64,000 nt of DNA from a virus (taxonomy: Duplodnaviria; Caudoviricetes), in IMG/VR virus record IMGVR_UViG_3300007177_000042; one strand, given 5' to 3'. Below, piece by piece: positions 1,027 to 5,363 of this stretch (its first letter is position 1; each line of letters opens with the position of its first letter). A model generated the notes under the pieces. The model saw only the letters and a program-made list of their open reading frames with translations. It was not told the DNA's origin and searched no databases. Made by a program: the position numbers and the translations under genes.

Positions 1027-1056
1027 TTGACAGAATGAAGAATCAATCCGTACAGT
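1027..1056 (+). promoter_or_regulatory. sigma70-like promoter
   Basis: TTGACA-N18-TACAGT. Confidence 0.6.
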
Positions 1057-1062
1057 CAAGTG

Positions 1063-1177
1063 TAGTCGCCGGACAATCAAGTCCAGCGCTATTGCCTAGC
1101 TTAAGCTAGAACTGACTAACGGTAAATTTGCTAAAGAACAAACCGTTGGTCCACAAAACCAACGGTTTTTTGTTTTT
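1063..1177 (+). ncRNA. candidate small RNA or attenuator between a promoter and a terminator
   Basis: No ORF on the + strand; stems TAGTC/GACTA, GGAC/GTCC, CTAGC/GCTAG, then a terminator. Confidence 0.45.
1140..1177 (+). terminator. intrinsic terminator
   Basis: AAACCGTTGGT-ccacaaa-ACCAACGGTTT followed by a T tract. Confidence 0.8.
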
Positions 1178-1186
1178 GAGCAAGGC

Positions 1187-1214
1187 TTGACTTTTCAAAG
1201 AGACGTGGTATAGT
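1187..1214 (+). promoter_or_regulatory. sigma70-like promoter at the head of the tRNA array
   Basis: TTGACT-N16-TATAGT. Confidence 0.6.
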
Positions 1215-1412: not shown

Positions 1413-1496
1413 GGGCTTGAAACTCTATCTGGTGTGCCCTTCGTAAGATAAAACACTTGATCGGTCAACTGGTGTTATCCTAGTAGAGAACCAGTA
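1413..1496 (+). ncRNA. candidate pseudoknotted RNA
   Basis: GGGC/GCCC stem whose loop (CTCTA-T-CTGG) can pair with CCTAG-TAGAG at 1479-1488, enclosing a long hairpin at 1447-1479. Confidence 0.35.
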
Positions 1497-1522
1497 TGGC
1501 GATAAATTGGTACAAATTTAAC

Positions 1523-1597
1523 GGGCGGTTAGCTCAGTGGAAGAGCAGATCCTTTACACGGATAAGGTCAGAGGTTCAAATCCTTTACCGCCTACCA
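1523..1597 (+). tRNA. trnV: tRNA-Val(TAC)
   Basis: Cloverleaf, loop TT-TAC-AC, TTCAAAT T loop, encoded CCA. Confidence 0.92.
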
Positions 1598-1604
1598 TTT
1601 TTAT

Positions 1605-1682
1605 CGGAGTGTAGCTCAACTTGGCTAGAGCGCTTGCTTTGGGAGCAAGAAGTTGCAGGTTCAAATCCTGTCACTCCGACCA
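1605..1682 (+). tRNA. trnP: tRNA-Pro(TGG), canonical
   Basis: CGGAGTG/CACTCCG acceptor, CTTGC/GCAAG stem, TGG anticodon, CCA. Confidence 0.93.
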
Positions 1683-1688
1683 TTTTAC

Positions 1689-1766
1689 GGTGATATAGAC
1701 CAACTGGAAGGAGTCGTTACTTTGAGAGAGTAAATAGTGCAGGTTCGAATCCTGTTATCACCACCA
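1689..1766 (+). tRNA. trnL: tRNA-Leu(GAG), short variable loop
   Basis: GGTGATA/TATCACC acceptor, TTACT/AGTAA stem, loop TT-GAG-AG, 5-nt variable loop ATAGT, CCA. Confidence 0.85.
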
Positions 1767-1769
1767 ATT

Positions 1770-1853
1770 CGGCATATGATGTAATAGAAGCCATGCGAGT
1801 CTTAGAAGCTCGTGGAGAAATCCGTGGGGGTGCAAGTCCCTCTATGCCGACCA
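1770..1853 (+). tRNA. trnL: tRNA-Leu(TAG)
   Basis: CGGCATA/TATGCCG acceptor, loop CT-TAG-AA, long variable arm, CCA. Confidence 0.85.
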
Positions 1854-1860
1854 ATTTAAT

Positions 1861-1938
1861 GGCTACGTAGACCAACCGGAAGGAGTCGTCTATCTCAAAA
1901 ATAGAATAGTGCTGGTTCGAATCCAGTCGTAGCTACCA
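1861..1938 (+). tRNA. trnL: tRNA-Leu(CAA), short variable loop
   Basis: GGCTACG/CGTAGCT acceptor, TCTAT/ATAGA stem, loop CT-CAA-AA, variable loop ATAGT, CCA. Confidence 0.85.
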
Positions 1939-1947
1939 ATTTATAAT

Positions 1948-2032
1948 GGGTGTGTGGACACGGCGAAACTGGAAGAAGCGTCTCATTTAAAACGAGAAGT
2001 CCTTGTGAGTTCGAATCTCACCACACCTACCA
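1948..2032 (+). tRNA. trnL: tRNA-Leu(TAA), atypical (about 6 extra nt before the D arm)
   Basis: GGGTGTG/CACACCT acceptor, loop TT-TAA-AA, GTGAG-TTCGAAT-CTCAC T arm, CCA. Confidence 0.72.
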
Positions 2033-2038
2033 ATTTAT

Positions 2039-2114
2039 GGGCTGGCATGTTCTAAGGGAGCGAGACTGTTTTGCAAACAATCTGTTGTGAGTTCGATTCT
2101 CATCTGGTCCACCA
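2039..2114 (+). tRNA. trnA: tRNA-Ala(TGC)
   Basis: G3:U70 wobble, loop TT-TGC-AA, T arm GTGAG-TTCGATT-CTCAT, CCA. Confidence 0.8.
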
Positions 2115-2126
2115 ATTTTTTTGCTA

Positions 2127-2220
2127 GTTTGAACGTAACCACATATTCATGTGGACGAGGGGACGACCCCGCTTAGACGCACTAAGAAGATTTGTTCTTA
2201 GTGGTAAGACGGCTTCAAAC
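2127..2220 (+). ncRNA. orphan multibranch RNA A
   Basis: Closing stem GTTTGAA/TTCAAAC around hairpins CCACAT/ATGTGG, GGGG/CCCC and CACTAAGAA/TTCTTAGTG. Confidence 0.55.
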
Positions 2221-2234
2221 GGTACACATTTTAT

Positions 2235-2324
2235 GGAAGGGTGGCTGAGTGGCTTAAGGCGTCGGTCTTGAAAACCGAAGGGGCCTCAAAACCTCCGGGG
2301 GTTCGAATCCCTCTCCTTCCTCCA
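2235..2324 (+). tRNA. trnS: tRNA-Ser(TGA)
   Basis: TCGGT/ACCGA stem, loop CT-TGA-AA, long variable arm, CCA. Confidence 0.92.
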
Positions 2325-2330
2325 ATTTAT

Positions 2331-2424
2331 GGATGGTAGACGAATAGTTAGTTAGTCGTATCTGTTTGCTAAACAGACGTGGCCTAAAAAACCACTGTGG
2401 GGGCAGCACCCACATCATCCGCCA
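2331..2424 (+). tRNA. trnS: tRNA-Ser(GCT), atypical D and T loops
   Basis: GGATGGT/ATCATCC acceptor, loop TT-GCT-AA, T loop GGCAGCA, CCA. Confidence 0.82.
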
Positions 2425-2430
2425 ATTTGT

Positions 2431-2517
2431 GGAACATAAACCGGACAGCCGTGCCGGAACTGATTCGAAATCAGATTGCACTATGTGTGTGGGGTTGAAG
2501 TCCTCTGTGTTCCGCCA
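2431..2517 (+). tRNA. trnS: tRNA-Ser(CGA), 8/4 fold
   Basis: 8-bp acceptor GGAACATA/TGTGTTCC, 4-bp T stem GGGG/CCTC, loop TT-CGA-AA, G73, CCA. Confidence 0.85.
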
Positions 2518-2519
2518 AT

Positions 2520-2607
2520 GGAGAGTAAACCAGTTAGGTACTGGGGTTGATTGGAAATCAGCACGCACCTTGAAAGGTGTGAGTTTCGAATACTCTGCTC
2601 TCCTCCA
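2520..2607 (+). tRNA. trnS: tRNA-Ser(GGA), 8/4 fold
   Basis: 8-bp acceptor GGAGAGTA/TGCTCTCC, 4-bp T stem GAGT/ACTC with loop TTCGAAT, loop TT-GGA-AA, CCA. Confidence 0.87.
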
Positions 2608-2623
2608 TTTAATAACACTCCAC

Positions 2624-2652
2624 TTGACATTGGAACCGAGAACTGATAGATT
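2624..2652 (+). promoter_or_regulatory. internal sigma70-like promoter in the tRNA array
   Basis: TTGACA-N17-TAGATT. Confidence 0.6.
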
Positions 2653-2696
2653 GATATCGTTCCTTGAAGAAATCGGAGATTGTCAAAAGATTTTAT

Positions 2697-2788
2697 GGTG
2701 AGGTGTCTGAGTGGTCTAAAGAGACAGTTTGCTAAACTGTTGTACGGTTAACCCCGTACCGAGGGTTCGAATCCCTCCCTCACCGCCA
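2697..2788 (+). tRNA. trnS: tRNA-Ser(GCT), canonical
   Basis: ACAGT/ACTGT stem, GCT anticodon, long variable arm, TTCGAAT T loop, CCA. Confidence 0.93.
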
Positions 2789-2793
2789 ATTTT

Positions 2794-2867
2794 GCGGGTA
2801 TAGCTCAATGGTAGAGTGTCAGTCTTCCAAACTGATTATGCGGGTTCAATTCCCGCTACCCGCTCCA
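2794..2867 (+). tRNA. trnG: tRNA-Gly(TCC)
   Basis: GCGGGTA/TACCCGC acceptor, loop CT-TCC-AA, U73, CCA. Confidence 0.93.
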
Positions 2868-2877
2868 AGTTTATGAC

Positions 2878-2951
2878 TGGGGATTTGCATAATGGTAGTG
2901 CAGGAGACTTTGGATCTCTTAGTGAAGGTTCGATTCCTTCATCCCCTGCCA
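2878..2951 (+). tRNA. trnQ: tRNA-Gln(TTG)
   Basis: Loop CT-TTG-GA, TTCGATT T loop, G73, CCA; U1-U72 mismatch. Confidence 0.88.
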
Positions 2952-3325: not shown

Positions 3326-3401
3326 CGGGCGTGAGGAAGATAGCTAATCCGCGCCGTTTGGGACGGCGAGACACCGGGAGCAATACCCGGACGCCCGACC
3401 A
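3326..3401 (+). tRNA. trnP: tRNA-Pro(TGG), atypical elbow
   Basis: CGGGCGT/ACGCCCG acceptor, CGCCG/CGGCG stem, T loop AGCAATA, CCA. Confidence 0.8.
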
Positions 3402-3406
3402 TTTAT

Positions 3407-3480
3407 TGGGGTTTAGTATAAAAGTATTATGGCTCGCTTTGAACGAGAGGACGGTGGAGCATTACCATCAACCCCAGCCA
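3407..3480 (+). tRNA. trnQ: tRNA-Gln(TTG), atypical elbow
   Basis: TGGGGTT/AACCCCA acceptor, loop CT-TTG-AA, T loop AGCATTA, CCA. Confidence 0.8.
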
Positions 3481-3866: not shown

Positions 3867-3940
3867 TGGGGATTAGTATAAAAGCATTATAACTGACTCT
3901 GAATCAGAAGAAGGTGGAGCATTACCATCATCCCCAGCCA
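3867..3940 (+). tRNA. trnQ: tRNA-Gln(CTG), atypical elbow
   Basis: TGGGGAT/ATCCCCA acceptor, loop CT-CTG-AA, T loop AGCATTA, CCA. Confidence 0.82.
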
Positions 3941-5204: not shown

Positions 5205-5279
5205 GGGCTGGTGGTGCTAATGGTAACACAACTCGTTTGCACCGAGTGGTTAGGAGTTCGATTCTCCTCCGGTCCACCA
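5205..5279 (+). tRNA. trnA: tRNA-Ala(TGC)
   Basis: G3:U70, ACTCG/CGAGT stem, loop TT-TGC-AC, CCA. Confidence 0.9.
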
Positions 5280-5289
5280 ATTTTAGAGC

Positions 5290-5363
5290 GCGGGTATGAT
5301 GTAGTGGTAGCCTGCAACCTTGCCAAGGTCGATGTGCCGGTTCGATTCCGGCTACCCGCTCCA
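5290..5363 (+). tRNA. trnG: tRNA-Gly(GCC)
   Basis: GCGGGTA/TACCCGC acceptor, loop TT-GCC-AA, U73, CCA. Confidence 0.92.

Follow-up and report, generated by a model that had tools for sequence, protein, structure and literature searches.

A putative multivalent leader-peptide attenuator at the head of a tRNA operon in uncultured giant phages

The window, a stretch of 64,000 nucleotides, is part of a 111.7-kb IMG/VR virus contig with a CheckV completeness of 36%. It derives from a tailed phage and encodes a terminase and a baseplate wedge protein in addition to a T4-like major head protein; related contigs reach 296-304 kb. The nearest cultured phages, Microcystis phage Mel-JY01 and Flavobacterium phage immuto, show only ~56% identity in the major head protein, so that no model system is available, and a blastn search with positions 900-1520 against cultured phage genomes gave no match. 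The element analysed here is flanked by a sugar epimerase/reductase gene (78-1010) on one side and by a tRNA array (1523-2951 and 5205-5363) on the other, with a tmRNA 3' of the array. The gene directly upstream of the element encodes an NAD-dependent, GDP-fucose-synthase-like enzyme (Pfam Epimerase, 3e-69); its stop codon is at 1008-1010, and the leader promoter described below has its presumed -35 region in overlap with the 3' end of this gene.

Relatives of the element were collected in two steps. Six contigs with the same upstream gene were examined first, and the element was conserved in them. Viral contigs were then scanned for the terminator, and viral together with metagenome contigs for the motif of RNA2, a conserved structured RNA that heads the tRNA operon, which resulted in ~90 loci. 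The leader unit is present in 78 of these, corresponding to 47 distinct unit sequences from uncultured giant phages that are not phylogenetically independent of one another.

Directly upstream of an intrinsic terminator, as expected for an attenuator, the window contains a short conserved ORF of 24 codons plus TAG, MKNQSVQSSVVAGQSSPALLPSLS, at 1035-1109 (plus strand, as are all elements of the unit; ATG at 1035, TAG at 1107-1109), which was absent from the feature list of the original prediction for this region. Every unit carries an ATG-started ORF of 17-25 codons, and the 47 distinct units encode 36 distinct peptide variants, for example MNSVSQPSQASQLPSGS, MRNSLQPSLSVAGQPSLT, and MKSLLQPSLAGQSPVMGG. 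Composition is far better conserved than sequence among these variants, and it is composition and length class that the peptides keep. Insertions and deletions in the 11 closest relatives are multiples of 3 nt within the ORF and 1, 2, 5 or 7 nt after its stop, and the alternative frames of the leader contain stops in 41/41 and 37/41 variants. The conserved ATG, the frame with its in-frame indels, the stop position, and the amino-acid composition together suggest that the leader ORF is probably translated and that the sensor is most likely the translating ribosome.

Departures from this plan were observed as well. In some relatives the leader is lost by deletion or merged with a longer ORF, and in some phages leader-like codons (…SLQPSQSVEAGLPAGDS, then stop) form the C-terminal tail of a longer ORF. 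Natural module variants upstream of RNA2 are found in L146, L210, L159, L161, L179, and L205, as well as in L170, where only a remnant of segment 2 and the terminator (see below) is left, and in L147, where the terminator differs and the leader is absent. The TAG stop of the window leader is followed by an in-frame TGA two codons further on. A tRNA with the anticodon CTA (amber-reading, labelled 'Pyl' by ARAGORN) is encoded in the other tRNA operon of this phage, between tRNA-Cys and tRNA-Thr, ~7.2 kb upstream of the window start (L213).

The probable -10 box of the leader promoter (P1), TATGTATT, is located at 1021-1028, and the ATG follows 6 nt later. Across the family, the conserved ATG is preceded at a distance of 4-9 nt by a TATATATT-like -10 box, which is kept in variants of both this leader and a second leader of the same phages (leader 2, below). 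Many relatives have a TTGACA-like -35 box 17 nt upstream of the -10 box; the P1 -35 of the window is weak (TGTACG, 998-1003) and lies within the 3' end of the upstream gene. No Shine-Dalgarno sequence was found before the leader ATG. Together with the 4-9 nt between -10 box and ATG, this suggests that the leader mRNA, judged from its predicted start site, is probably leaderless or nearly so; translation of the ORF would depend on initiation of this kind, a weak point of the model. The TATATATT box was also considered as a phage-specific promoter class, which was dropped as the motif is rare, with 17 genome sites that are mostly not before genes. The original prediction had placed a TTGACA/TACAGT promoter in this region. 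Both motifs are present (1027-1032 and 1051-1056), but they lie inside the conserved ORF, where TACAGT contributes to helix strand 1, and only the nearest relatives keep the pair. This promoter assignment and the transcription start that came with it were probably wrong, although the motif pair may fire in the phage of the window.

The RNA from 1062 to 1176 folds better than shuffled sequences (z = -4.4), and four segments of the unit can form three overlapping helices. Segment 1 (CCGTACAGTCA, 1048-1058) lies within codons 5-8 and pairs with segment 2 (TGACTAACGGT, 1113-1123) in minimum free energy (MFE) folds, the 1:2 duplex having -10.1 kcal/mol. Segment 2 is the antiterminator strand, which can pair with either segment 1 or the 5' arm of the terminator. 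This arm, segment 3, consists of AAACCGTTGGT and C1151 (1140-1151), and segment 4 comprises the 3' arm ACCAACGGTTT (1158-1168) followed by TTTGTTTTT, extending to 1177. A terminator scan confirmed the intrinsic terminator at 1140-1168 with its T tract, a hairpin of -14.1 kcal/mol whose T run TTTTTTGTTTTT at 1166-1177 is made up of three T at the end of the arm plus TTTGTTTTT. The terminator stem (1140-1150 with 1158-1168) is 100% paired in the relatives.

Two hairpins lie between the strands of the 1:2 helix, both at the sites where they had been predicted. Hairpin H1 within the ORF (CGC-C-GGAC / GTCC-A-GCG, 1067-1088, with GGAC-aatcaa-GTCC at 1071-1084) has three pairs with compensatory changes, for example GGAC/GTCC to GCAC/GTGC in L007. 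Hairpin H2 (CTAGC-ttaa-GCTAG, 1096-1109) holds the stop codon TAG in its 3' strand; its stem is nearly invariant, with a variable loop of TTAA, GCAA, GCAT or CTCG. The three-way junction proposed in the original prediction does close, and its TAGTC (1063-1067) and GACTA (1114-1118) are present, but this pair of strands has a C.A mismatch in most relatives. The conserved closure is formed elsewhere, by CCGT 1048-1051 with ACGG 1119-1122 and AGTCA 1054-1058 with TGACT 1113-1117. This 1:2 helix is 88.7% paired across 11 relatives, with two pairs changed on both sides. The subgroup of the window folds as a three-way junction, other subgroups as a single hairpin.

The antiterminator consists of 10 bp between GACTAACGGT (1114-1123) and ACCGTTGGTC (1142-1151), with -15.9 kcal/mol. 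The complementarity of AACGGT (1118-1123) and ACCGTT (1142-1147), which had been the starting point for proposing an antiterminator, is real and forms the core of this helix, and in homologs the pairing is conserved and co-varying rather than lost. All 11 close relatives keep the 2:3 helix (110/110 cells), with one compensatory change, CG to UA in L141, where all three strands have changed together (ATCAA / GATCAACGGT / ACCGTTGATC). Across the family, five clearly distinct types of terminator stem can be told apart (seven as binned), …CCGTTGG…, …CCCGTCA…, …CCACCAATC…, …CCCACCTATC…, and …CCCATCAGA…, and segment 2 tracks the terminator type. Cognate 2:3 duplexes have a mean of -17.7 kcal/mol, non-cognate ones -8.9, and the class matrix is maximal on the diagonal for six of the seven classes (z of -1.7 to -6.4 versus shuffles). 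In several relatives, segment 2 also pairs with bases of the terminator loop or 5' flank that are of no use for termination. The antiterminator of leader 2, which has 15-18 bp and -16 to -25 kcal/mol, is stronger than its own terminator and likewise uses flank bases without a role in termination. The unit thus has mutually exclusive 1:2, 2:3, and 3:4 helices supported by covariation, as would be expected for an attenuator. The attenuator reading of the original prediction, namely competition between an antiterminator and an intrinsic terminator just upstream of the tRNA array, is supported.

The stop codon at 1107-1109 lies 4-6 nt before segment 2, and in other subgroups it abuts or overlaps segment 2. 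With an assumed ribosome footprint of 1092-1119, it is placed such that a ribosome at the stop would block the antiterminator strand. Co-transcriptional folding, which the original prediction had named as a check, was modelled with nascent RNA to 1156, from which segment 4 has not yet emerged. The 2:3 helix is the MFE structure for a ribosome stalled at codons 5-21 and collapses when a ribosome masks the RNA at the stop codon, where 2:3 is cut to 4 bp and segment 3 is free for the terminator. The nascent RNA already prefers 2:3 without any ribosome, which weakens the model, and in the full-length RNA the equilibrium structure is the terminator whatever the ribosome position, so that the masks do not discriminate. 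As the terminator always prevails at equilibrium, the model needs kinetic, co-transcriptional control.

We consider it likely, from the sequence features described here, that 1021-1177, which heads a tRNA operon of a giant phage, is a trp-type, multivalent attenuator of transcription that acts through a leader peptide and the ribosome translating it. In the proposed mechanism, P1 with its TATGTATT -10 box would produce an mRNA with little or no 5' leader that encodes the 24-codon ORF. With fast decoding, the ribosome would reach the stop at 1107-1109 and cover the 5' half of segment 2, the terminator would form, and transcription would end at ~1170-1177. A ribosome that stalls on a codon short of charged tRNA would hold segment 1, allowing 2:3 to pair and the polymerase to read on toward the tRNA genes. 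The ribosome geometry in this scheme is modelled with an assumed footprint size. Read-through would be predicted to raise tRNA output, and the outcome would be negative feedback on tRNA supply. That the attenuator acts as a demand sensor for tRNA supply in this way is, in our view, somewhat better than an even proposition.

The amino acids of the leader correspond to the tRNAs encoded downstream. The first block of the array (1523-2951, plus strand; ARAGORN), which is presumed to be regulated, comprises Val(tac), Pro(tgg), Leu(gag,tag,caa), Ala(tgc), Ser(tga,cga,gga,gct), Gly(tcc), and Gln(ttg), and Ala/Gly genes continue it at 5205-5363 (ARAGORN). In the leader peptides, 96% of the residues at positions 5 to n-2 are V/P/L/A/S/G/Q, compared to 42% in the long ORFs of the phage. 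In almost all of ~60 relatives whose downstream DNA is long enough, a V/P/L/S/G/Q/A array comes after the leader, in a few cases with at least one extra tRNA. A few variants have residues outside the set. These are concentrated in the first 2-4 codons and, at the other end, in the last codons, which coincide with segment 2 or adjoin the stop. A ribosome stalled at the last codons would itself mask segment 2, and no signal would be expected from there; for the first codons the reason is less clear.

At the level of codons, the operon tRNAs already read most codons of these amino acids, which leaves a test of codons against anticodons little power, and the correspondence is reported at the amino-acid level. 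By hand count, leader 1 samples 12 of 15 isoacceptors and leader 2 samples 17 of 22. The three Leu codons of the window leader, CTA, TTG, and TTA, match Leu(tag), Leu(caa), and Leu(taa), and the number of Leu residues correlates with the number of Leu tRNA genes across relatives (rho = 0.55, a weak support that ignores kinship).

Gaps in the array at 1939-2038, 2331-2424, 2431-2517, 3326-3480, and 3867-3940 contain tRNA-like genes missed by ARAGORN at default settings and by Rfam. Among them is Ser(cga) at 2431-2517, found at relaxed thresholds only; a probable Leu(taa) and a Ser(gct)-like gene whose T loop is non-canonical were recognised by eye. All of these tRNA-like genes fit the V/P/L/A/S/G/Q set. 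Between tRNA-Ala and tRNA-Ser, at 2127-2220, lies a stretch of ~95 nt with three hairpins that is not a tRNA and matches no Rfam family.

Reading of the whole record revealed a second module ~18 kb upstream, before the other tRNA operon, again with promoter, ORF, terminator, promoter(s), and RNA2. Its sequence is unrelated to that of the first module, whereas its plan of ORF plus helices is alike. The second operon encodes tRNAs for Thr, His, Glu, Trp, Asn, Asp, Tyr, Phe, Lys, Ile, Arg (three), and Cys, as well as further tRNAs, those for Asp and Lys being detected with relaxed ARAGORN thresholds. In the second leader ORF, encoding MIRYTHIKRWDTFTNCEGRWRLVL, each of the 12 amino acids of its operon is represented, and no two of the four Arg residues share a codon. 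This leader is conserved in 16 further distinct variants with the consensus MRVHYTNIKRWDTFTNCECVDGDIV. A table of leader against amino-acid class gives 18/2 versus 2/19 (Fisher p = 1.7e-7), and the two leaders jointly cover all 19 amino acids other than Met. In both modules, the leader codons thus correspond to the tRNA set presumed to be regulated, as a leader-peptide attenuator would require. Three genomes were searched, including one rated 100% complete, and every one of them contains exactly two copies of RNA2, both of which follow a leader module. On balance we favour the view that the two complementary leaders (V/P/L/A/S/G/Q and T/H/E/W/N/D/Y/F/K/I/R/C) each gate or boost the operon serving those codons and form a demand-driven circuit in giant freshwater phages.

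One feature, the main caveat, departs from the arrangement expected for an attenuator, in which no promoter intervenes between terminator and target. The promoter scan confirmed a probable second promoter (P2) at 1187-1214, plus strand, as had been predicted; it is a near-consensus sigma-70-type promoter with TTGACT, a 16-nt spacer, TATAGT, and TG, and the T tract of the terminator abuts its -35. All family members inspected have a TTGACA-type promoter at this place, ahead of the tRNA operon. Given this position of P2, read-through would supplement tRNA transcription but would not gate it.

RNA2 (1413-1505, plus strand) follows P2 and is conserved in >60 distinct sequences; its consensus fold has 6 covarying pairs. 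It is ~95-130 nt long and lies between the second promoter and the first tRNA in each of the two operons, the second copy being at ~16730-16850 of L213 on the minus strand. It is characterised by a hairpin whose 19-nt loop, UUGAAACUCYAUCUGKUGW, is invariant, by the long helix AUCGGUC…GGCGAU, and by a probable pseudoknot with covariation (GGUGU:ACACU in copy 1, GUUGA:UCAAU in copy 2), and it has no Rfam match. Between P2 and RNA2, the subgroup of the window, and only this subgroup, has a 54-aa ORF (1239-1403) without Pfam or PHROG match. In close relatives, this ORF is preceded by a tRNA-Val(tac) that is missing from the window.

The same arrangement of terminator and promoter could be read differently. 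A stand-alone small gene would give rise to a terminated RNA of ~140 nt that acts in trans, either itself or through its peptide, leaving P2 as the only promoter of the tRNA operon. The unit does have its own promoter and a strong terminator, a separate near-consensus promoter follows directly, and the full-length equilibrium fold is always the terminator. This leaves unexplained, however, why segment 2 tracks the 5' arms of the terminators, including flank and loop bases useless for termination, and why each genome has two leaders that match their own downstream tRNA sets. The peptides, moreover, retain composition and length class and not sequence, and we regard such a gene as unlikely. A plain sRNA, which the original prediction had offered as one of its readings, is not supported either; ATG, frame, stop position, and amino-acid make-up are conserved instead of the fold. 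A further possibility is that the ribosome senses the leader codons as proposed, but with an output other than extra tRNA transcription, for example polymerase passage that modulates P2 or a change in RNA2 folding or processing. Leader, terminator, second promoter, RNA2, and tRNAs are kept in this order as a block in both modules, and the T tract directly adjoins the -35 of the second promoter, both of which would suit such a scheme; it is more complicated than additive read-through, and we hold it to be improbable, somewhat more so than a stand-alone gene.

The other reading of the original prediction, a riboswitch, would take the three-way junction as a metabolite-binding aptamer whose closing stem competes with the antiterminator. 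The region folds well (z = -4.4), its internal helices co-vary, and the layout of alternative pairings is riboswitch-like. Nevertheless, an Rfam search of the whole window at the gathering threshold and of 950-1560 at E-values up to 10 returned nothing relevant, and the domain architecture differs between relatives, with the junction restricted to the window's subgroup and a single hairpin in others. A core of conserved unpaired bases is not evident across subgroups, conservation concerns coding features, and the second module, with its unrelated sequence, has an equal plan of ORF plus helices, all of which makes a riboswitch very improbable. Least probable of all, and contradicted by conservation, is an ordinary terminator of the upstream epimerase gene, with the ORF and the complementarity arising by chance. 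In the window's subgroup the unit does follow the epimerase stop (1008-1010) directly, with no other terminator in between. In most relatives, though, the module follows other genes or another terminator, and conservation of ORF, composition, and helices extends over 47 distinct units and to a second module.

Leader-peptide attenuation, the reading we prefer, has its known examples in enterobacteria, where multivalent leaders include thrL (Thr, Ile) and the ilvGMEDA leader (Ile, Val, Leu), next to trpL, hisL, leuL, pheL, and the pheST leader. The phage unit shares with them a short ORF, which in the phage would report on charged-tRNA supply, as well as an intrinsic terminator, helices 1:2, 2:3, and 3:4 that overlap, and a stop codon set so that a terminating ribosome would mask segment 2. 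In contrast to these leaders, it precedes tRNA genes and not biosynthetic enzymes or synthetases, and it samples 7 or 12 amino acids, mostly with one to few codons each and without a run of a single residue. Its mRNA, unlike theirs, looks leaderless, and a promoter lies between attenuator and target. The Rfam leader families (Trp, His, Thr, Leu, Phe) gave no match at the gathering threshold or at E-values up to 10, and the phage unit is an analogue, not a homologue, of the enterobacterial leaders. T-box RNAs bind uncharged tRNA directly via a specifier loop and the T-box motif and have no ORF. They resemble the mechanism proposed for the phage unit in the tRNA-dependent choice between antiterminator and terminator upstream of translation-related genes and differ in the sensor, which in the phage would be a translated ORF; an Rfam search for T-box at the gathering threshold or at E-values up to 10 found no match, and the phage antiterminator bulges by 1 nt at most.

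Among published systems, the closest in function is a long tRNA operon induced under translational stress, the trn array of Anabaena sp. PCC 7120 (PMC8421152, PMC10272220). It is controlled by the ribbon-helix-helix repressor TrcR, which binds at the -10 box, and no leader peptide or attenuation is mentioned (PMC10272220). Both systems have a supernumerary tRNA array, and expression of the Anabaena array goes up when elongation is impaired, as is proposed for the phage array; the Anabaena array is located on a bacterial megaplasmid and uses a protein repressor, whereas the phage unit would use a leader peptide. Full-text literature searches turned up neither leader peptides located ahead of tRNA genes nor a published case in which leader-peptide attenuation acts on such genes.

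The tRNA genes of phages are usually seen as a fixed gift that compensates for codon usage or allows escape from tRNA-cleaving defences of the host. If the proposed mechanism is true, these phages would measure decoding speed and adjust their tRNA output, topping up the portion of the tRNA pool that the host cannot supply or has had destroyed, and the logic of trp/his attenuation would be extended to the tRNA pool. Several "orphan structured RNAs" in phage tRNA islands would then be explained as translated leaders. With its compact design of ~140 nt and two modules, the system would serve as a natural multi-codon sensor of translation stress.
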